From: Roseovarius sp.
GTDB lineage: Bacteria > Pseudomonadota > Alphaproteobacteria > Rhodobacterales > Rhodobacteraceae
DNA: 64,000 nucleotides
Direction: 5' to 3'
Assembly: GCA_045106595.1 (NCBI GenBank)
Contig: JBGCEW010000012.1
Span: 220,113-284,112, forward strand
The translations under genes were made by a program, and so were the position numbers. Shown in pieces: positions 13,773 through 23,333 of the stretch (its first letter is position 1; every line of letters begins with the position of its first letter). Below the pieces are notes generated by a model. It had not been told where the DNA came from. It saw only the letters and a program-made list of their open reading frames with translations, and searched no databases.

Positions 13773-15025
13773 GCGCGCCCAAATTCACAACGCTGGGCTG
13801 TCGGCTGAACGCCTATGAGACCGAAGCCATGAAAGAGCTGAGCCAAATGGCAGGGCTGGACAATGCAGTGGTGATCAATACCTGCGCTGTCACCGCCGAG
13901 GCCGTGCGCAAGGCCCGTCAGGAAATTCGAAAGCTGCGCCGCGAAAACCCACACGCGCGGCTGATCGTCACCGGATGTGCGGCCCAGACCGAACCTCAGA
14001 CCTTTCAGGCCATGGATGAAGTCGATGCAATCATCGGCAACACCGAGAAAATGCAGCCCGCCACCTGGGCTGGCCTCGCCGCCGATTTCATTGGTGCGTC
14101 TGAGGTGCCTCAGGTGGATGACATCATGTCGGTCACGGAAACCGCGGGCCATCTGATCGACGGGTTCGGCACCCGCAGTCGCGCTTATGTGCAGGTGCAA
14201 AACGGCTGTGATCACCGCTGCACCTTTTGCATCATCCCATATGGCCGTGGCAATTCGCGCAGCGTGCCCGCCGGTGTCGTGGTGGACCAGATCAAACGCC
14301 TTGTTGACCGCGGCTATAACGAAGTGGTGCTGACTGGCGTCGATCTGACCAGCTGGGGTGCTGATCTGCCGTCCGAGCCCAAACTGGGCGATCTGGTCAT
14401 GCGCATTTTGCGGCTCGTACCTGATCTGCCGCGCCTGCGGATATCGTCGATCGACAGCATTGAGGTGGATGACAACCTGATGCTGGCCATCGCATCGGAG
14501 CCCCGCCTGATGCCGCATCTGCACCTCAGCTTGCAGCATGGTGATGACCTGATCCTGAAACGGATGAAACGCCGCCACCTGCGCGATGATGCCATCCGGT
14601 TTTCCGAAGAGGCGCGCAAACTGCGCCCCGATATGACCTTTGGTGCCGATATCATCGCAGGCTTTCCAACGGAAACCGAAGCGCATTTTGAGAACTCACT
14701 GCGACTGGTTGAGGACTGCGCCCTGACATGGCTGCACGTCTTTCCCTACTCCAAGCGCGAAGGCACACCGGCGGCGAAAATCCCCAATCAGGTGAACGGC
14801 AATGTGATCAAAGAACGCGCAGCACGGCTGCGGACAGCAGGGCAGGCCCGCGTCACGCGGCACCTGCAAAACCAGATCGGATGCACCCATCGTGTTTTGA
14901 TGGAAAATCCGCGCATGGGCCGGACCGAGCAGTTTACCGAAGTCACCTTCGACGCTGATCAACCCGAAAGCCAGATCGTCACCGCCACGATCACCGGGGC
15001 GACTGACACACAGCTGACCGCATGA
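13769..15025 (+). CDS. mtaB: tRNA t6A37 methylthiotransferase
   Basis: TLGCRLNAYETE, NTCAVT, VTGCAAQ, radical-SAM CDHRCTFC, HVFPYSKREGT. Confidence 0.93.
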   Translation: MSAPKFTTLGCRLNAYETEAMKELSQMAGLDNAVVINTCAVTAEAVRKARQEIRKLRRENPHARLIVTGCAAQTEPQTFQAMDEVDAIIGNTEKMQPATWAGLAADFIGASEVPQVDDIMSVTETAGHLIDGFGTRSRAYVQVQNGCDHRCTFCIIPYGRGNSRSVPAGVVVDQIKRLVDRGYNEVVLTGVDLTSWGADLPSEPKLGDLVMRILRLVPDLPRLRISSIDSIEVDDNLMLAIASEPRLMPHLHLSLQHGDDLILKRMKRRHLRDDAIRFSEEARKLRPDMTFGADIIAGFPTETEAHFENSLRLVEDCALTWLHVFPYSKREGTPAAKIPNQVNGNVIKERAARLRTAGQARVTRHLQNQIGCTHRVLMENPRMGRTEQFTEVTFDADQPESQIVTATITGATDTQLTA

Positions 15026-15032
15026 GCCAATC

Positions 15033-15683
15033 ATGAGCTTACCTGTCCTGTGGTCTTTTCGCCGTTGTCCTTACGCGATGCGCGCGCGGTTAGCGGTGGC
15101 CTCGGCGGGGATCCCCTGCGATCTGCGCGAGGTGGTGCTGCGCGACAAACCCGGCGCGTTCCTCGACACCTCGCCCAGCGGCACGGTGCCCTGCCTGAAC
15201 ACCGGCACCACCGTGATCGACGAAAGCCGCGACATCATGCACTGGGCGCTGGCGCAATCCGATCCCGAAGGTTGGCTGGACATGCCAACATTGGGACACA
15301 GCCTGATCGACGTCTGCGACGGCGCCTTCAAGACGGCACTCGATCACTACAAATACCCTACGCGCTATGCCGGAATAGACCCGGTGGCCGAGCGGGGCAG
15401 CGCGGGCGTTTTCTTGCACGAACTGAACGCCCAATTGGGGACCACGCCCTATTTGTTTGGCCCCACGCCCAAGCTGGCCGATATGGCGATCCTGCCGTTC
15501 ATCCGCCAGGTTGCCCATGTCGATCTGGATTGGTTCACCCAACAGGACTGGACCGCAGTGACCGCCTGGCTGGACCGGTTCAAGACATCACAGACCTTTG
15601 CGCAGATCATGCACAAAATCCCACAATGGACACCCGACAGCCCGCCTTTGCCCTTTCCCGGCCCGGTCCCTGTCGCAGGCTAG
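15033..15683 (+). CDS. glutathione S-transferase family protein
   Basis: SFRRCPYAMRAR, TVPCL, ESRDIMHWAL, LADMAILPFIRQ. Confidence 0.9.
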   Translation: MSLPVLWSFRRCPYAMRARLAVASAGIPCDLREVVLRDKPGAFLDTSPSGTVPCLNTGTTVIDESRDIMHWALAQSDPEGWLDMPTLGHSLIDVCDGAFKTALDHYKYPTRYAGIDPVAERGSAGVFLHELNAQLGTTPYLFGPTPKLADMAILPFIRQVAHVDLDWFTQQDWTAVTAWLDRFKTSQTFAQIMHKIPQWTPDSPPLPFPGPVPVAG

Positions 15684-15688
15684 AGCAC

Positions 15689-15716
15689 AAAAAAACCCCG
15701 CCAACGAGGGCGGGGT
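15689..15716 (-). terminator. rho-independent terminator downstream of ccrM (converging with GST)
   Basis: ACCCCGCC-aacgag-GGCGGGGT hairpin with A7 tract on the + strand (U-tract on -). Confidence 0.75.
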
Positions 15717-15774
15717 ATAGTTGATGCCGTGGTCAGGCCACAGGCACCGGCGGTGTTCGCAAAATGTGTTGAAT

Positions 15775-16974
<1,200 letters not shown>

Positions 16975-16976
<2 letters not shown>

Positions 16977-17607
16977 AGCGTGTTACACTTTTATCTTGAT
17001 ACAAGATGTTGTGTACGGGCTTGAATGAACGTCTATGGTGTGGGGTTACCCCGAGATTTTGCAGCGCCTCTCTGTGGCTTTTCGACGGATAACCGGCGTT
17101 CGTCTCCCAGCCATAACCCGGGTAGTGTTGCGCCAACTCCCACATGACATAATCCCGACCTATTTTGGCCATACTTGAGGCCGCCGAAATCGACTGCGAA
17201 CGCGCATCTCCCTTGATAATGGCCTGTGCCGGAATGGTCAGACCGCGCGGGATCATGTTGCCATCGATCAAAACCTCATCCGGAACACGTGGCAGGCCCG
17301 CAATCGCACGCTCCATTGCCAGATGCGATGCGCGCAGGATGTTCAGCTCGTCGATTTCTTCGACCGAAGCATGTGCGATGCAGACCTCGGCGCTGGACAT
17401 GATCTGATCATACAAGACGGCACGACGCTTTGCGGTCAGTTTTTTGGAATCGTTCAAACCATCGGGGATGTTATCGGGGTCCAGGATGACAGCGGCGGCA
17501 GTCACCGGGCCCGCAAGAGGCCCACGGCCCACCTCATCCACACCTGCAATGACACGCACACCGCGTGCCATAGCCTCACTCTCAAGGGAAAAATCGGGTC
17601 CTGACAT
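16975..17607 (-). CDS. rnhB: ribonuclease HII
   Basis: AGVDEVGRGPLAGPV, LNDSKKL, IDGN, KGDARS.SI.AAS.AK..RD, NAGYPSKSH. Confidence 0.95.
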
Positions 17608-17642
17608 GGTCATGCTTGTCACATACGACCGTGTCATATGCA

Positions 17643-17670
17643 AAGGGGACGGTCCGAAAACCGCCCCCTT
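17643..17670. terminator. GC hairpin downstream of the exported-protein gene
   Basis: AAGGGG.CGG...CCG.CCCCTT inverted repeat. Confidence 0.5.
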
Positions 17671-17692
17671 CGACTGCTCTTAATTCTCAGAT

Positions 17693-18145
17693 TTAGTGCA
17701 GGCGGGCCAGGCTATAGCCCTGATTGCGCAGGCAGCGACCGCCAAAGATCACACGTTTTTTGTTTGTCTGAGGATCGCGGATCTTAATTTTGCAATGCTG
17801 CGGCAGCGCCTGAACGTTTACATTGTGACGTTTCAGACATCCGCGCGCCAGACCGCGCACTTTGTGACCTTGCAGATTGCGAACCACCTTGCACTTCGCT
17901 GGCAGCAGTCTTGGGTTATGATAGACGGTGGGGGCTGTGTACCCGTGGTTATTGTAATAATACTGCTGTTGCGCCTTGCGCTTGCGCTTCTTCTTACTCT
18001 CTTGATTGATGGCAAGACCGATGATGGCCAGGGCGGCCGCACCTGCGATCCATTTTTCAGTGTCATCGGCGCGGGCGGGGGCAGCACTGAAGCCGGTGAC
18101 GGCCACAGCGGCAGACAGGACGAGGGCGATAAATGTGCGGTGCAT
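17693..18145 (-). CDS. exported basic hypothetical protein with 2x LPxxC...CL repeat
   Basis: Signal peptide ending APARA, hydrophobic stretch, KKKRKRK, two Cys-paired repeats. Confidence 0.75.
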   Translation of the reverse strand: MHRTFIALVLSAAVAVTGFSAAPARADDTEKWIAGAAALAIIGLAINQESKKKRKRKAQQQYYYNNHGYTAPTVYHNPRLLPAKCKVVRNLQGHKVRGLARGCLKRHNVNVQALPQHCKIKIRDPQTNKKRVIFGGRCLRNQGYSLARLH

Positions 18146-18334
18146 GATGTGTATCCTTTCAATCATGGTGTGGGGGGCCCTAGCAGCAGGGCGTTGTCCC
18201 GGATGAAACCAAGATGGGGCATCCCCCGAAAGTCAGGCAATAACGCGGCGTTGCTATCCAATAACCCCAGGCAAATAAGCCTTTGGCGTGGCTTGGTTAT
18301 TGAATAGCCGAGCAGTTCAGCGCATGTTCTGCCC

Positions 18335-18583
18335 ATGACACGCAAAACACTCATCCCCGCCGCTTTGGTGCTTGGCACCGTTCTCAGCGGCACGGTCACA
18401 CAGGCGCAAGCCGCCTGCATGGCCGAGTACAAAGCCAAACGGGACAATCCGCTTGAGCTTTATTATGATGTGGCCCAGATCCCTGGCCCGTGCACGCAGG
18501 CGAATGCCACAGCGCAGCTACAGGCGATGCTGGCCGCGCAAGGCCTGACCTTGTTGAAAGTTCTATCCGTCACGGAGAGTTAA
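18335..18583 (+). CDS. small exported protein with two Cys
   Basis: Signal peptide MTRKTLIPAALVLGTVLSGTVTQAQA; mature ~56 aa; stop 2 nt before next start. Confidence 0.75.
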   Translation: MTRKTLIPAALVLGTVLSGTVTQAQAACMAEYKAKRDNPLELYYDVAQIPGPCTQANATAQLQAMLAAQGLTLLKVLSVTES

Positions 18584-18585
18584 GC

Positions 18586-19290
18586 GTGAACGACTTAAAC
18601 AGTACTGCCGCATATGCACGCCGCTCGGGCAACCGGGTGGTGGTGTTTGGGCTGGGGGCCGTAGTGGCCATTTTGGTCCTGACAGCTGTGTTCTTGTTCA
18701 TCAGCCTGCCTGACGCCAATGCCTTCAATGCACGGGTCGAACGGATTTTTGTGGAAAACGATCTGCTGACGTCGGATGCCGAATTGAAACTGCTTGAAAT
18801 TCTGGCGCTCTCAGGGACTGCGTTTTCAGAAACCCTGATCAGTTACCGAATGGTGATCTTTGTTCTGCTGGTCTTTGCTGCGGCCCTTTTGGTGGCAGCA
18901 CTGGTATTTCTGATCATGCTGATCACCATGAACCGTCGCATGGCGCAGATTGAACGTGCGGGTATTCAGGTCAGCAGCCTGCTGATCAGCCGCGAGGAAA
19001 AGACCGTCTATCTGAACAACATGGGCTTCAAGCTGACCGATGCGGCGATGGAAACCCTGGCCGTGTTGGCCGAGGCACGCATGGATGATGATGTGATGTC
19101 AGGCGCCGAGATTGAAGGGGTCATTTCAGGCCGCTCTGCCAGCGATTGCGAAGAGGCAGCAGGTGCCACCCGCATCAAGCGTCTGCGCGATGCGCTGGGC
19201 AACCAGATGGTGACCGAGTTGCTGGTCAAAAACATTGCCCGCAAAGGGTATATGCTGGCCATCGACAAGGACGTGATCAAGGTCATCTAA
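18586..19290 (+). CDS. membrane-anchored transcriptional regulator (2 TM + C-terminal OmpR/PhoB-type winged helix)
   Basis: Two hydrophobic helices flanking ~45 aa loop; C-terminal LTDAAMETLAVLAE...TRIKRLRDALG...VKNIARKGYML; no REC domain; GTG start. Confidence 0.75.
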   Translation: MNDLNSTAAYARRSGNRVVVFGLGAVVAILVLTAVFLFISLPDANAFNARVERIFVENDLLTSDAELKLLEILALSGTAFSETLISYRMVIFVLLVFAAALLVAALVFLIMLITMNRRMAQIERAGIQVSSLLISREEKTVYLNNMGFKLTDAAMETLAVLAEARMDDDVMSGAEIEGVISGRSASDCEEAAGATRIKRLRDALGNQMVTELLVKNIARKGYMLAIDKDVIKVI

Positions 19291-19404
19291 AGTCTGTTTT
19301 TGTGGCAGATGCCCGCCCGCCTCCCCCTTCGGCGCGTGCCGCGCCTGTGACCAAAGGAGGCGCGCTGCGCGCGGTTCACCCATATCGTGCCGCGGCCAGG
19401 GCCG

Positions 19405-19884
19405 CTAATGCAGCGTCATCGGTCGGTCGGGCGACTGAGCCGTAGCGCGGCACTGGGCAAGCCGCATGCGTTTTAACATAAGGCCAAAGCGTGCCGCCAG
19501 TTCTGTGACCAGCGGCGCCATGTCAGGGCGCACAAGAAGCGTGGCCATCAACATGGCATCCTCGCGCGCGCCCTCAGCAGCGGTGGCAATGAAATTGGCA
19601 AAGCACGCCTCGTCTGCGCCTAGACAATTGCACATGACCGCATGGCGCATCAGCGGACGCCGGGCATGCGTTTGGCAGATATCACACAGCGCATCAAAGC
19701 TGTCCTGCGCACGTTGCCCGGCATCTGCCCCCAAGGCCAATGTCCAATCGTGATTGATCTGAGAGCGGCCTGCATCGCCTTCCCGCCATAATCGAAGATA
19801 CAGAACTGCGGCGGCACGCGTGGCATCCAGTTCACTGACATATCCCACAGGCGCGCCCCCGGGGAACGGGCTTTGAACGCTCAT
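19405..19884 (-). CDS. conserved hypothetical protein (HxxxCxC motif) coupled to hemP
   Basis: ATGA overlap with hemP stop; RRPLMRHAVMCNCLGADEACF. Confidence 0.75.
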   Translation of the reverse strand: MSVQSPFPGGAPVGYVSELDATRAAAVLYLRLWREGDAGRSQINHDWTLALGADAGQRAQDSFDALCDICQTHARRPLMRHAVMCNCLGADEACFANFIATAAEGAREDAMLMATLLVRPDMAPLVTELAARFGLMLKRMRLAQCRATAQSPDRPMTLH

Positions 19885-20051
19885 TTGGTCAGGATCAGTT
19901 TGCCCGCACGGGTGATGCGCAGGGTGTAAATCTGATCGCCCAGAATAATCTGCGCCTGCGTGCCATTTTGGGTCAGGTCAGTCGCACTATAAGAGGGGTA
20001 TTGAGCCACAACAGCTTGCTGCGTGATATCGGGAACCGCGTGATAACTCAT
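19881..20051 (-). CDS. hemP: hemin uptake protein HemP/HmuP
   Basis: AQIILGDQIYTLRITRAGKLILTK is the HemP C-terminal signature; GGAAG RBS upstream. Confidence 0.9.
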   Translation of the reverse strand: MSYHAVPDITQQAVVAQYPSYSATDLTQNGTQAQIILGDQIYTLRITRAGKLILTK

Positions 20052-20211
20052 GAGGTCTTCCTTCCGGTTTTGTCCGGATCGCCCTGACGCGCGCCTTAGC
20101 ACGGTAACAGAACCATCCTTTCATCACATGAATGTCAGGCTTGCCCATAGGGGTGCTGGGGTGGCTGGACCTATGCTGCGATCATGGCGCAGGAGGCGGT
20201 GATGAGTCAGT

Positions 20212-20228
20212 CTGATAATTTTGGTCAG
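20212..20228. promoter_or_regulatory. Iron-Rhodo-box-like palindrome upstream of hemP
   Basis: CTGATAATTTTGGTCAG (17 bp, CTGA...TCAG) resembles the Rhodobacteraceae iron box CTGAcTrawtyagTCAG as I recall it. Confidence 0.65.
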
Positions 20229-20231
20229 GAA

Positions 20232-21233
20232 TTAATCAGCCACTTTCAGCAAACCCATCAAAGTGCTGTTCAACAAATCCGGCGTGTCAATTTGTAAACG
20301 CACAGGCAAGGTGATCACCTTGAGCCGAAACTCGGGCGGCAAGCGCACAGCGTCTTTTTCCGTTGTCACCAATTGAGCGCCCAGCAAAGCTGCCTCTGCC
20401 TCCAGACGGGAAAGCAAAGCCGGGGTCAACGGCTGGTGATCCTCCAGCGGCTCACTGCGCACCAGATCAGCACCCAATGCGCGTAGCGTGTGAAAAAATT
20501 TCTCGGGGTGGCCAATGCCGGCAAAGGCCAGATAACGCCCATCAGCCCAATCCATGCCAGTTTGCAAGGGGGCCAGATGCCCCGTCAGATGCGGCACATC
20601 CTGGCCTGACCCCAAAGTCTGTGCAAACGCCTCTTGTGCCTTGGGCGGACCAATCGACAACAGCACATCGGCGCGTGCCATGCCTGCAGAAACCGGCTCA
20701 CGCAAGGGGCCTGCAGGGATGCAACGACCATTGCCAAATCCTTTGGCGGCATCCACCACGACAATCGAAAGATCCTTGCTCAAACAGGGGTTCTGGTGCC
20801 CGTCGTCCATAACAATCACATCGGCCCCGGCAGCCACCGCAGCCTGTGCCGCAGCAGCACGGTCACGGCCAATCCAAATCCGTGTAAAGGCTGCCAGCAA
20901 CAACGGCTCATCGCCGACATCATTGGCGCTGTGCTGGGTCTCAACCACCTCAACCGGGCCTGTCAGCTGCCCGCCATGACCACGTGACACGACAAAAGCC
21001 TTTTGGCCCATAGCCTGCAGCTGTTGAACCACTGCGATCACCGTGGGTGTCTTGCCTGTGCCACCTGCGTTTATATTGCCCACGCAGATCACCGGCACAT
21101 CCATGCGCTGGCCGGTTTGTCCCGCCAAACGCCGGGCAGTCGCGCGGGCGTAAAGCCATCCTAACGGCCCCAAAAGACGGGCCTTTGGGGAGGGCTGTTG
21201 CGCTGTGGTGTACCAAAAGGACGGCGCGCGCAT
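20232..21233 (-). CDS. lpxK: tetraacyldisaccharide 4'-kinase
   Basis: [62 protein letters not shown]. Confidence 0.95.
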
Positions 21234-22450
21234 TATCCCGCCTCCGCCAGATCAAGCGTATCTTGCAGCAAATCCAGTATGCGGTCTGTCACCTCGGCAC
21301 CTTGCGAGGTGACGTCCCAGGCCGCATGGATCATGGCCGCAGCCCGGTCCGGGGCAATCAAACCCTGAACAGCCGCTGCCAACGTATCGGCATCCCGCAC
21401 GATCCGTGCCGCACGGGCCTCGGCAAAGCGCGAGTATTCGGCCATGAACCCGCGCACATTCGGCCCATAAAGTATCGCAGTGCCGTGCACCGCGGCCTCA
21501 TTCGGATTGCAGCCCTGCATCCCCTGACGCAGTGAATGACCCAGAAAGCTGATCGGTGATAGCCTGTACCAAAGACCCAGATCATCACGGCCATCAGTCA
21601 GAATGATCTGCGTTGTGTCCTGAGGCATATCGCCATCCGGCCAGGTGATATAGGCAACCTCTTCGGCCTCGATCCGGGCGCGCATGGCGGCGTGATCCGC
21701 TGCATCATACGGCACAATGATCAACAAGGACCGGTGCGCAAGGCGGCTGACGGCACGGCGCGCCTCAAGGATGACATCCAGCTCTTGCAGGTGCAGATCA
21801 GCGGCCATCCACAAAGGATGACCCCGCAATGCATTGGCCATATCTTCGCGCTCGCGCTCGTCATAAGGCAAGGGCATGGCCTCGGGGTTCAAAGTTGACG
21901 TGACGATGATATCGGCATCGGGCACGCCAATGCGACGCAGTGCGCGGGCGGTGTCCTCATTCTGAACCTGAATTTGTGCGAACATATCCATCAGGGATCG
22001 GGGTAAATCGGGAAACCAGCGCCAGCCCGAGCGCGCCAATTGCTCTTCTTCGGCATCCAGCAGGAACAGCGGAATGCTGCGCGCATCGGCCCGGCTGAGC
22101 AATGCAGGGCGCAGATCACCGCCCGTCCACAGGCAAATATCCGGGCGCCAGTGATTCAGAAAACTGTCTGCGCCAACAACGGTATCAGCCCCAAGAACCT
22201 GATGAATACATCCCAAAGGCATGTCACCCGCCAGATCAACCTCGGGCGCGGAGGTCAGCAAAAGGCGAACGCCGGGGCGTTGCTGGGCCAGCCGATCTAC
22301 GATCTGGCGCAAGGCAGCGGCACGGTTGGCATCCGTTGCATGACCCCAGATCAGCTCGCCTTTGGGGCGCGCTGTGGCAGGCGGGTCAGGTGCCTGAATG
22401 GCCCGGCCCGCATATGCCATATACGCCTTGAGGCTAAGTGATCGGGCCAA
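21233..22450 (-). CDS. Kdo transferase WaaA/KdtA-like protein (divergent)
   Basis: [14 protein letters not shown]...W...DLRP, LWMAA, LIIVP, SFLGHSL...GCNPNEAA...ILYGPN; coupled to lpxK; TTG start estimated. Confidence 0.75.
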
Positions 22451-22589
22451 AACGAAGCTTTCGGTGCTGGTGTCAAACTGCGCGCAGGGTATTGCATTGC
22501 CGGGCAGGGTCAAGCCGGGGTGGGGCTTGACGGGCAGGTCGGCACAAGGCAACCAGTTATGGTTTCTTATTGATGACAGGCAGCCTGAC

Positions 22590-23333
22590 GTGACCAAGCC
22601 CTTTTTGATCCTGCAACTGCGCCCCGAAACCGAGGCGTCAGATGATGAATACGCCGCCATCCTGCGCAAAGGCGGGCTGCGCGCCGATCAGACCCATCGC
22701 ATCCGGCTGGATCAGCAGCCTCTGCCCAAGGGGCTGGACTTGAATGACTATTCCGGTGTGATCGTCGGGGGCGGGCCCGGCTGCGTCAGTGACCCGCCCG
22801 AGGACAAAACCCCGGTGGAGGCAAAGATCGAAGCAGCCGTTTTGTCGCTGATGCCGCAAGTCACCGAAAACGATTTGCCATTTATGGGGTGCTGTTACGG
22901 GATTGGCATTCTGGGCAAGCACCTGCAAGGGAACGTCAGCAAGGCGCAATATGGTGAACCGGTTGGCACGGCTGATTGCATCGTCCTGCCCGGCGCGCTG
23001 GATGATCCATTGCTGCAAGGTGTGCCAGAAACATTTGAGGCCTTCGTCGGCCACAAAGAAGCACTACAGGCTTTGCCCGACGGATGCGTTCATCTGGTGG
23101 CATCAGACAGCTGCCCGTTTCAGATGATCCGCTATGGTGACAACGTCTATGCAACGCAATTTCATCCCGAAGCCGATGGTGCCGGGTTTGAAACCCGGAT
23201 CAACATCTACAAGCATCGCGGCTATTTCCCACCAGAACAGGCAGACAGCCTGATCGCCATGTGCCGCGCGGCCGACGTTGATGCACCCCAGCGTATCTTG
23301 CGAAATTTTGTAAAGCGTTACGCGCGGGCTTGA
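22590..23333 (+). CDS. class I glutamine amidotransferase (GMP-synthase-like)
   Basis: GVIVGGGP, FMGCCYGIG nucleophile elbow, VGHKE, ATQFHPE; GTG start. Confidence 0.88.
   Translation: MTKPFLILQLRPETEASDDEYAAILRKGGLRADQTHRIRLDQQPLPKGLDLNDYSGVIVGGGPGCVSDPPEDKTPVEAKIEAAVLSLMPQVTENDLPFMGCCYGIGILGKHLQGNVSKAQYGEPVGTADCIVLPGALDDPLLQGVPETFEAFVGHKEALQALPDGCVHLVASDSCPFQMIRYGDNVYATQFHPEADGAGFETRINIYKHRGYFPPEQADSLIAMCRAADVDAPQRILRNFVKRYARA

Follow-up and report, generated by a model that had tools for sequence, protein, structure and literature searches.

Two adjacent genes in a 64,000-nucleotide stretch of Roseovarius sp. DNA, hereafter the window, encode a small exported protein (P) and a membrane-anchored regulator (R), and a third gene, div157, is transcribed divergently from them (Table 1). 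As P, R and div157 are conserved across hundreds of genomes, they represent real genes and not chance ORFs. The GTG start codon of R is preceded by a GGAG box and follows the TAA stop codon of P by 2 nt, and from this distance we infer that the two proteins are encoded on the same mRNA.

Table 1. Genes, protein segments and conserved intergenic elements of the P-R locus (window positions).
Feature	Position	Strand	Description
div157, predicted target gene	17693-18166	-	157 aa, signal peptide
Putative operator site 1	18232-18244	+	half-site GTCAGGCAATAAC; family consensus gaCAGGCAATAWC
Putative operator site A	18252-18266		7-1-7 inverted repeat TGCTATCCAATAACC; consensus TGTTATCnGATAACA
Putative operator site B	18295-18309		second inverted repeat GGTTATTGAATAGCC
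GCGCAT element	18320-18325	+	conserved; 10-15 nt before the P ATG, at the expected Shine-Dalgarno position
P, small exported protein	18335-18583	+	82 aa; starts MTRKTLIPAALVLGTVLSGTVTQAQA, then mature AC...
R, membrane-anchored regulator	18586-19290	+	234 aa, GTG start
R TM1	18640-18708	+	residues ~19-41
R periplasmic helical loop (side inferred)	18709-18849	+	acidic, ~47 aa, residues ~42-88
R TM2	18850-18930	+	residues ~89-115, followed by NRR
R OmpR/PhoB winged helix	18964-19263	+	C-terminal

The first 125 residues of R consist of a TM segment, a loop and a second TM segment. The N-terminus is basic (R12, R13 and R17), and both hydrophobic helices have positive-inside flanks. The C-terminus folds as an OmpR/PhoB-type winged helix according to profile searches, AlphaFold2 and Foldseek. 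A profile of the R family matches the DNA-binding domains of ArlR, RstA, PrrA, ToxR and SaeR in the PDB over residues 127-224, although the similarity to OmpR-family domains is weak (E ~1e-4 even by profile). The Pfam model PF00486 (Trans_reg_C) scores only 17 bits on the window R (E 0.006) against a curated cut-off of 26.2; among other family members, L113 and P0144 score 23.9 and 19.6 bits, and P0133, which is 48% identical to the window R, clears the cut-off with 38.9 bits. A precomputed PF00486 match is present on many Ruegeria orthologues. The AlphaFold2 model, which is just moderately confident (pLDDT 66), comprises a beta-sheet, three helices and a wing (E132-149, H152-166, H173-181, H190-204, E215-223), and Foldseek aligned R to the DNA-binding domains of ArlR, GlnR, PhoB, ToxR and CadC with target TM scores of 0.6-0.75 (~0.7). 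In the family alignment, hardly any position of the recognition helix, GATRIKRLRD, varies.

No receiver domain was found in R with Pfam or NCBIfam; the NCBIfam response-regulator models align solely to the C-terminal ~110 residues, with 13-15 bits against cut-offs of 270-350. No kinase was evident by eye among the ORFs listed for 15000-23000, which we take to be a CcrM-like methyltransferase, RNase HII, HemP, an LpxK-like and a KdtA-like protein.

P carries a signal peptide (residues ~1-26) and a mature part of ~56 aa with exactly two Cys residues, C28 and C53, which are invariant in 39 orthologues. Conservation covers the mature domain, with both Cys residues and the motif C-x-x-[ED]-YKAK-x-D-x-P-L, while the signal peptide drifts. 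P is likely an exported, disulfide-bonded protein, both export and disulfide being inferred. AlphaFold2 predicted a beta-beta-alpha-beta fold for the mature part with high confidence (pLDDT 97-98). P matches no Pfam or NCBIfam family, and a fold search against the PDB returned nothing significant, the best match being an archaeal ribosomal protein (E 0.44). In the absence of known fold relatives, there is no hint as to the binding target of P.

The div157 protein has, besides its signal peptide, a Gly-rich, Gly-zipper-like second hydrophobic segment followed by KKKRKRK, and it may therefore be membrane-anchored rather than freely secreted. Members of its family, as judged from ORFs at 70 loci, most of them orthologues, share a basic linker rich in Lys, Gln and Tyr and, at the C-terminus, a 4-Cys domain; several orthologues have His-rich tails or the 4-Cys domain. 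Homologues occupy the same position in 62 of 80 loci and in most of a separate set of 41, and no Pfam family matches div157.

The earlier note, written from the sequence alone, had described a protein with a signal peptide and two Cys residues at 18335-18583 and, after a 2-nt gap, a TM-loop-TM-winged helix protein at 18586-19290; these features are present in the sequence as described, and the loop, put at ~45 aa, spans ~47 aa. The claimed absence of a receiver domain and of a nearby kinase also held, within the Pfam and NCBIfam models and the ORFs of 15000-23000. That the C-terminus might fail to model as a winged helix, which would have refuted the proposal, did not apply. The description of the divergent gene product as secreted held in part, in that the signal peptide is present and membrane anchoring remains possible.

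We then compared the locus across genomes. R is a single-copy gene in 37/37 Roseovarius genomes and in 240 of 301 Rhodobacteraceae genera, and was found in 0/24 genomes sampled outside this family; thus ~80% of the sampled Rhodobacteraceae genera carry the P-R module. A search of 1.84 billion representative proteins for R gave only 199 hits. Members of the R family are 70-93% identical, and the module, with 70-80% identity between genera, is about as conserved as the adjacent RNase HII gene. More distant members, at 48% and 37% identity, retain P, the palindromes and a divergent gene. This gene is div157-like in the former and encodes a different exported protein in the latter, where no RNase HII gene was called in the 5.7-kb locus.

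P and R form an uncharacterised, strictly linked gene pair. P lies directly upstream of R in 79/79 loci that hold upstream DNA and in 41/41 loci of a further count, the two genes overlap or abut, and P is absent from 60/61 genomes without R. The expectation that the small gene would be conserved with R was hence met. One genome (G073, 63% complete) was considered as a case of P without R and rejected, as R on its contig breaks off after ~38 aa into unrelated AhcY-like sequence. A conserved partner downstream of R was also rejected; the genes after R vary between genera, and the hemP pair of the window is therefore outside the module. In a covariation check, a single R position (82, E vs D) tracked the short and long forms of P, a result confounded by phylogeny. 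We found no characterised member of the P-R family in database names or in the full-text literature searched with architecture terms, roseobacter and envelope terms, and locus tags, so that no earlier description of the architecture came to light. Database names of R orthologues are generic or wrong, such as 'histidine kinase' or 'response regulator', and a homologue search aimed at locus tags of model roseobacters returned just Ruegeria-type entries with generic names.

What this analysis adds is a conserved putative operator in the divergent intergenic region, which recurs before small exported-protein genes. It comprises the half-site of site 1 and the two inverted repeats, sites A and B, and is conserved in about 70 genera. 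The like-oriented half of site A follows the AATAAC of site 1 at a distance of 21 bp. Site A is the top PWM match in its own genome, and its center is ~93 bp upstream of the start codon of div157. Site B is centered ~33 bp upstream of the P ATG and, at this position, probably overlaps the P-R promoter. A consensus sigma-70 promoter was not found in the intergenic region, the sole match being inside the P ORF. In 70 of 71 sequences the A-B spacing, 43 bp in the window, takes one of the values 21/22, 32/33, 42/43 or 53 bp; the remaining sequence has 26 bp. This quantisation at ~10.5-bp steps indicates that sites A and B are held in helical phase. The GCGCAT element, seen in an alignment of 71 upstream regions, is non-coding, since it stands in different frames to the ATG in different genera (two alignment rows read: the window and L043). 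Rfam returned no family in 17600-19450, which rules out a known RNA as the identity of the conserved intergenic block.

The composite of sites 1 and A occurs in 160 of 301 family genomes, compared with 0 for a reversed control. By cross-tabulation, 157 of 240 genomes with R contain the composite, versus 3 of 61 without R. The palindrome alone yielded, by tally, at least about 130 sites in the 240 R-positive genomes and at least 5 in the 61 R-negative ones, and its control matched 3 times in 301 genomes. The enrichment in R-positive genomes is partly trivial, since R and the primary operator are neighbours on the DNA. Where a secondary copy has a plausible leftward gene, this gene encodes an exported protein whose start is 55-150 bp away, and two of these genes, at L154 and L158 in other genomes, are div157 paralogues. 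The genome of the window has a secondary site of its own on contig 33, at 113415-113449. A few secondary copies have no clear leftward gene. One complete genome (G278) contains two composite sites and neither R nor P.

The neighbourhood itself could suggest that P-R functionally belongs to the adjacent ccrM-rnhB block and serves the cell cycle or DNA metabolism instead of envelope signalling. In support, the module is flanked by ccrM and rnhB in about 70 of 80 loci, and the block is equally conserved. However, ccrM and rnhB lie behind div157 and are read in the direction leading away from the operator; an Amylibacter-type locus retains the module with no RNase HII gene called within 5.7 kb; no CtrA-like or GANTC motif is apparent in the operator consensus by inspection, without a dedicated scan; and the predicted targets are all exported proteins. 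We consider this explanation very unlikely.

A more serious possibility is that the operator belongs to a Fur-family, Zur-like protein, with R merely co-located and having its own targets elsewhere, and with the His/Cys/Arg-rich div157 and P-R being metal-regulated. The 7-1-7 palindrome is the classic Fur-family layout, as in the B. subtilis 7-1-7 consensus and the E. coli Zur box consensus, and sites A and B are 15-bp inverted repeats of this form. The E. coli-type Zur consensus is TGTTATA-n-TATAACA, from which TGTTATC-n-GATAACA differs just at the innermost base pair, and the box between zur and znuA in the same genome, TGTTATAAAGTAACA, has the half-site TGTTAT in common with the operator. 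The His-rich tails or 4-Cys domain of several div157 orthologues and the two composite sites kept in G278 without R or P also fit this explanation.

Several observations speak against it. The zur-znuA box is a different variant, with innermost bases A-n-T where the operator has Y-n-R, and it ranks below the 50 best PWM matches in the genome. Unlike the Zur box, the operator palindrome is always paired with a CAGGCAATAWC half-site 21 bp away and is found almost solely in R-carrying genomes; Fur-family regulators are in general near-universal, whereas the composite is present in just 3 of the 61 genomes without R. The secondary sites precede assorted exported proteins of unknown function, not zinc-uptake genes. 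At loci whose surrounding synteny has broken down, the operator is still found beside P-R, and the motif, like the R recognition helix, is almost entirely invariant. After examining the znuA loci of the same genome, we did not adopt the Zur-box identity, because the half-sites are similar while variant, context and distribution differ; it remains a possible rival.

We instead lean towards the reading that R is a membrane-anchored one-component regulator with P as its periplasmic co-component, which autoregulates its own operon and controls div157 and a small envelope regulon, working like ToxRS without being a member of that group; both the partnership and the DNA binding are inferred. R would reside in the inner membrane with its N- and C-termini in the cytoplasm and its ~47-aa helical hairpin facing the periplasm, a topology that is itself inferred, and the winged helix would sit where a response regulator has it after the receiver domain. 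P and R would be translated from one mRNA, an inference made without transcript data, as no public RNA-seq run covering the locus was found. Exported P may then act on the periplasmic hairpin of R as a co-sensor or stabiliser; this contact is inferred, and no model of the complex supports it. R, probably as a symmetric dimer formed through the long TM2 helix, would bind the operator at 18232-18309, for which there are no binding data. Site B would serve autoregulation of P-R, sites 1 and A, ~90 bp upstream of div157, would control this gene, and composite copies elsewhere would act on further genes for small exported proteins. Whether R activates or represses, and what signal it senses, are also matters of inference. 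The earlier note had proposed control of the divergent gene, and this proposal gains support from the helically phased operator in the shared intergenic region and its recurrence before exported-protein genes, with DNA binding still inferred.

Alternatively, R might be a constitutive membrane-tethered DNA-binding protein without sensing, and P a co-transcribed envelope protein or a product of R regulation rather than a co-sensor. The periplasmic part of R is indeed just ~47 aa, with no sensor domain recognisable by Pfam or AlphaFold2, P lacks detectable relatives of known function, and only R position 82 tracks the forms of P. On the other hand, the R loop roughly equals the DNA-binding domain in conservation across ~240 genera, which would be surprising for a passive linker; P and R strictly co-occur in overlapping or abutting genes; and it is mature P with both Cys residues that is conserved, while the signal peptide drifts. 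This alternative thus appears unlikely.

On the preferred reading, in which R is a regulator with P as its periplasmic co-component, the closest known systems are the membrane-bound one-component or 'co-component' regulators ToxR/ToxS, TcpP/TcpH, VtrA/VtrC, PsaE/PsaF and CadC. R likewise has an OmpR/PhoB-type winged helix tethered to the inner membrane without a receiver domain or kinase, its DNA-binding domain matches those of ToxR and CadC by Foldseek and profile search, and P resembles the ToxS-type partners in being small, periplasm-facing and encoded in the operon of the regulator. The domain order is inverted, however. In ToxR-type proteins the winged helix is N-terminal and is followed by one TM segment and a C-terminal periplasmic domain. 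R departs from this order with its N-in TM, loop, TM and C-terminal winged helix, and its periplasmic part is a ~47-aa helical hairpin instead of a folded sensor domain. P is encoded upstream of R, whereas a homologue of ToxS, TcpH, VtrC or PsaF would be expected downstream. It is also soluble, has a beta-beta-alpha-beta fold behind a cleavable signal peptide, and shows no sequence or fold similarity to known ToxS/TcpH-type partners. ToxR-type sites are direct repeats, unlike the palindromes of the putative R operator. The description as a reversed 'ToxRS-like' pair consequently holds as an analogy only, given the dissimilar partner and inverted domain order. Like the OmpR/PhoB response regulators (ArlR, RstA, PhoB and GlnR), R ends in a DNA-binding domain built from a four-strand sheet, three helices and a wing, but a two-TM membrane module replaces the receiver domain and there is no phospho-acceptor.

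On balance, we favor the view that P, R and div157 constitute a three-part envelope signalling module confined to the Rhodobacteraceae. A bolder interpretation, which we regard as tentative, is that P-R represents a class of transmembrane signalling not described before and belonging to the core of the roseobacter group, in which the receiver domain has been swapped for a two-TM periplasmic hairpin, the small disulfide-bonded periplasmic P gates R, and R acts as a symmetric head-to-head dimer on 7-1-7 palindromes to control a regulon of small, fast-evolving exported proteins. Direct repeats are the usual binding sites of OmpR-family domains, which also counts against the preferred reading, and a head-to-head dimer on palindromes would be unusual for an OmpR-type winged helix.

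If the proposed mechanism is true, it would extend the ToxR-type membrane one-component regulators by a mirror-image form, provide a defined operator and a predicted regulon that are directly testable, and present an OmpR-fold domain that reads palindromes as a membrane-held symmetric dimer. Few marine heterotrophs are as abundant or as well studied as the Rhodobacteraceae (the roseobacter group). The module, carried by most of their sampled genera, suggests that a set of small exported proteins, so far unannotated, is co-regulated as an envelope response.

The three ORFs that the earlier note had placed at this locus were all confirmed in position: R, the gene for the regulator, P, the gene for its small exported partner directly upstream, and the divergent gene div157. 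The stop codon of P ends at 18583 and R starts with GTG at 18586. The R protein consists of a basic N-terminus, a hydrophobic helix (residues ~19-41), an acidic stretch of ~47 aa, a long hydrophobic helix (~89-115), the motif NRR and a C-terminal domain of ~110 aa. The positive-inside distribution, read from sequence alone, suggests that both termini are cytoplasmic and that the loop lies outside.

Features of the P-R locus and of related sites (window coordinates unless stated)
Feature	Position	Strand	Description
CcrM-like methyltransferase ORF and RNase HII	15775-17643		flank module in about 70/80 related loci; conserved across the family
div157	17693-18166	-	157-aa ORF with signal peptide
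Site 1	18232-18244		gaCAGGCAATAWC, from alignment
Site A	18252-18266		7-1-7 inverted repeat TGTTATCnGATAACA, seven bases beyond site 1
Site B	18295-18309		second inverted repeat GGTTATTGAATAGC, about 33 bp ahead of the P start codon
GCGCAT	18320-18325		conserved in most genera, 10-15 nt before the P ATG
P	18335-18583	+	82-aa ORF; typical signal peptide ending AQA|AC
R	18586-19290	+	234-aa ORF; GTG start preceded by GGAG
hemP pair	19405-20102		hemP (PF10636, E 4e-15) overlapping a 159-aa ORF
66-aa ORF and composite	contig 33, 113158-113449 (outside the window)		PWM scan of own genome
P forms compared	loci L060-L121 vs L042-L059		small gene, which occurs in a short and a long form

The C-terminal domain of R is a winged helix, as found computationally by profile, AlphaFold2 and Foldseek. 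Pfam Trans_reg_C matched the R of the window only weakly (E 0.006, 17 bits; cut-off 26.2 bits), yet over the whole model; a relative with 48% identity scored 38.9 bits, and precomputed PF00486 matches exist for many Ruegeria orthologues. A family profile built from 10 sequences matched the DNA-binding domains of ArlR, RstA, PrrA, SaeR and ToxR in the PDB over R residues 127-224. In the AlphaFold2 model (mean pLDDT 66; about 80 across most of the DNA-binding domain), the C-terminal domain comprises strands at 132-149, helices at 152-166, 173-181 and 190-204 and a hairpin at 215-223, and Foldseek returned only OmpR-family DNA-binding domains as top matches (ArlR, GlnR, ToxR, PhoB and CadC; target TM near 0.7). 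The N-terminal half, modeled as helices 8-40 and 44-57 and a single long helix 64-125, is predicted to form two TM helices linked by a short periplasmic helical hairpin. Family-model searches found no receiver domain in R, which is therefore not a response regulator.

The names of its closest matches place the window in Roseovarius. R is single-copy in all 37 Roseovarius genomes (78-93% identity) and is present in 240 of the 301 genera sampled from Rhodobacteraceae, at about 70-80% identity. A profile search confirmed that the R family is truly missing from the 61 family genomes without a match, and R was not found in any of 24 genomes drawn from other families in this order and class. Exhaustive HMMER searching of 1.84 billion representative proteins yielded just 199 matches, nearly all of them fragments of the same family; the most distant full-length relatives, one of them from Amylibacter, share 37-48% identity. 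The homologues carry generic names in their sources ('winged helix-turn-helix domain-containing protein') or wrong ones ('histidine kinase', 'response regulator'). No characterised member was found in the literature searched, the coverage of which was partial, so that 'uncharacterised' remains provisional.

A block of ccrM, rnhB and div157 followed by the divergent P-R operon is conserved in most loci. The methyltransferase ORF is one which we take to be CcrM-like by reading of its translation, while the identity of RNase HII rests on a Pfam RNase_HII match to a syntenic homologue. The genes downstream of R differ between genera; the hemP pair, not conserved beside the module elsewhere, was therefore rejected as a part of it, and the 159-aa ORF overlapping hemP had no family match. 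In the div157 protein, KKKRKRK follows a Gly-rich hydrophobic segment; a linker rich in Gln and Tyr and a C-terminal part with four Cys are also present. Its homologues, for which Pfam has no matching family, share a hydrophobic segment of Gly-zipper type, a very basic His/Arg/Tyr-rich linker and a signal peptide (commonly MHRKFIA...), usually with a C-terminal domain containing four conserved Cys.

P and R form a strict pair, since a P homologue lies directly upstream of R wherever this could be checked (41/41 loci in one set and, in a second, all 79 that include upstream DNA) and P was not found in 60 of the 61 genomes lacking R. The exception, G073, is a genome only 63% complete that keeps P; its R (contig 13, locus L166, 1785-2500) is broken off at ~38 residues, where unrelated sequence resembling AhcY/S-adenosylhomocysteine hydrolase takes over, probably through a chimeric join or a deletion. 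The signal peptide of P drifts, whereas the mature core C-Y-A-D-YKAK-x-D-N-P-L-R-L-H-Y-G-V...C...GWTLL is conserved; mature P has exactly two Cys, both invariant among orthologues, and AlphaFold2 folds it as beta-beta-alpha-beta (pLDDT 97-98). P had no Pfam or NCBIfam match and no significant fold match in the PDB. The short form, as in the window, ends in ...LTLLKVLSVxE (Roseovarius, Planktotalea and others), whereas the long form has ~20 extra residues with a conserved tail, FGPEGLxERKxSAGxYYLRF, and an aromatic last residue. Only one R position, 82 (E vs D), tracks the two forms. The long-form ORF overlaps the R start, which suggests translational coupling; counted from the beginning of the R alignment, the overlap reaches 29 nt.

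The present analysis adds a conserved operator in the div157/P intergenic region; its conservation is shown, and there are no binding data. When the 220 bp ahead of P were aligned across 71 genomes, three nearly invariant blocks, sites 1, A and B, stood out from otherwise unalignable DNA. Like-oriented halves of sites 1 and A are 21 bp apart. Sites A and B are spaced start to start by 21/22, 32/33, 42/43 or 53 bp in 70 of 71 sequences (43 bp in the window; the remaining one, 26 bp); these are whole helical turns, so that both sites stay on one DNA face. Neither a sigma-70 consensus promoter nor an Rfam family was found in this region. Separately, GCGCAT occupies the position before P where a Shine-Dalgarno box is expected, and no purine-rich box is present there; its frame relative to the ATG varies, and hence it is not coding.

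The composite of sites 1 and A (CAATAWC-N8-GNTAT-N3-ATANC) occurs in 160 of 301 family genomes and the reversed control pattern in none. It was found in 157/240 genomes with R vs 3/61 without, a contrast that is partly trivial because the primary operator adjoins R. The palindrome alone, TGWTATYNRATAWCA, gave about 130 sites in the 240 genomes with R, 5 in the 61 without and 3 reversed-control matches in all 301; among sites whose position could be compared with that of R, many lie away from it. Across the family, the recognition helix of R (GATRIKRLRD) shows almost no variation, and the same holds for the operator motif. In the member with 48% identity, P is present, the divergent gene is div157-like and palindromes are still recognisable. 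The Amylibacter-type member (37% identity) has P together with a perfect TGTTATTGAATAACA; its divergent gene encodes another exported protein, and gene calling in its 5.7-kb locus returned no RNase HII.

The main rival, which remains possible, is that the operator belongs to a Fur-family (Zur-like) regulator instead of R. A palindrome of 7-1-7 form whose half-site is TGTTAT follows the layout of the Fur family in its published consensus sequences, and the operator matches it. The zur-znuA box of the genome that holds the window is TGTTATAAAGTAACA, some div157 orthologues are His-rich, and one genome, G278, keeps the sites without R. Against this reading, the innermost operator bases differ from the Zur-type box, the palindrome is always combined with site 1, genomes lacking R almost never have the operator, changes in the surrounding synteny leave it next to P-R, and the genes that follow it code for exported proteins, not for zinc uptake. 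On contig 52 of the window's genome (~218340-218380, outside the window), a nested palindrome, GTTGATATGTTATAAAGTAACAGGTATCAAC, lies between znuA and a divergent ORF, which we take to be zur; it is likely to be a Zur box and has the TGTTAT half-site in common with the P-R/div157 operator. Three genomes have a composite and no R: G072, in which the site lies at the edge of a contig, G073, with its broken contig, and G278. The last is complete and carries two good composites (contigs 14 and 31, loci L164 and L165) ahead of genes for exported proteins, despite which neither R nor P was detected; an assembly gap, recent loss or another protein binding the sites could each explain this. Ranked below the Fur-family rival are an unlikely reading of R as a passive membrane tether and, lower still, a role of P-R tied to ccrM-rnhB, which we regard as very unlikely.

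A full composite at 113415-113449 of contig 33 is among the best PWM matches in the window's own genome after sites A and B; it stands 62 bp ahead of a 66-aa ORF that lacks annotation and has a signal-peptide-like N-terminus (MSLNNTLRASVLAALIAIGSTVSSEA...). Related Roseovarius genomes (G015 and G002) conserve both this ORF and its site, and at an equal distance other species carry small exported ORFs that differ from it. Family-wide, where a secondary composite has a plausible gene on its div157 side, that gene encodes a signal-peptide protein and starts 55-150 bp away, which is the geometry of div157 in the window; a clear leftward gene is missing at a few sites. These genes include two div157 paralogues (L154 and L158), one lipoprotein and several secreted proteins. 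A secondary copy in another Roseovarius (G026, locus L212) has an extra adjacent palindrome, CTGTTATCCAATAACA, and stands ahead of a gene for a secreted protein of 170 aa in which short Gln/Gly/Asn repeats abound.

The observation in the earlier note was confirmed overall, and, within the limits of computation, its interpretation of a topologically reversed ToxRS-like pair that may control the divergent gene is supported. The module resembles the ToxR/ToxS class in its membrane-tethered OmpR-type winged helix, the absence of a phosphorelay and the small periplasmic partner in the same operon. In contrast, the domain order of R is inverted, R has no folded periplasmic sensor domain, and P is unrelated to ToxR-class partners and encoded upstream. 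By analogy, P-R may work like this class while failing its defining features.

We lean, by a modest margin, towards a mechanism that unites R, P and the operator, in which neither the sign of regulation nor the signal is established. R would be a membrane-anchored one-component transcription factor, and P, exported and probably disulfide-bonded, would act on its very conserved periplasmic hairpin, either relaying a signal to R or stabilising it, the role that ToxS and TcpH have towards their partners. R would bind sites A and B; the simplest arrangement is a dimer of two-fold symmetry, held together by the long TM2 helices, and such a dimer would naturally read palindromes. Through site B, R would autoregulate P-R, and through sites 1 and A it would control div157 and other exported proteins.
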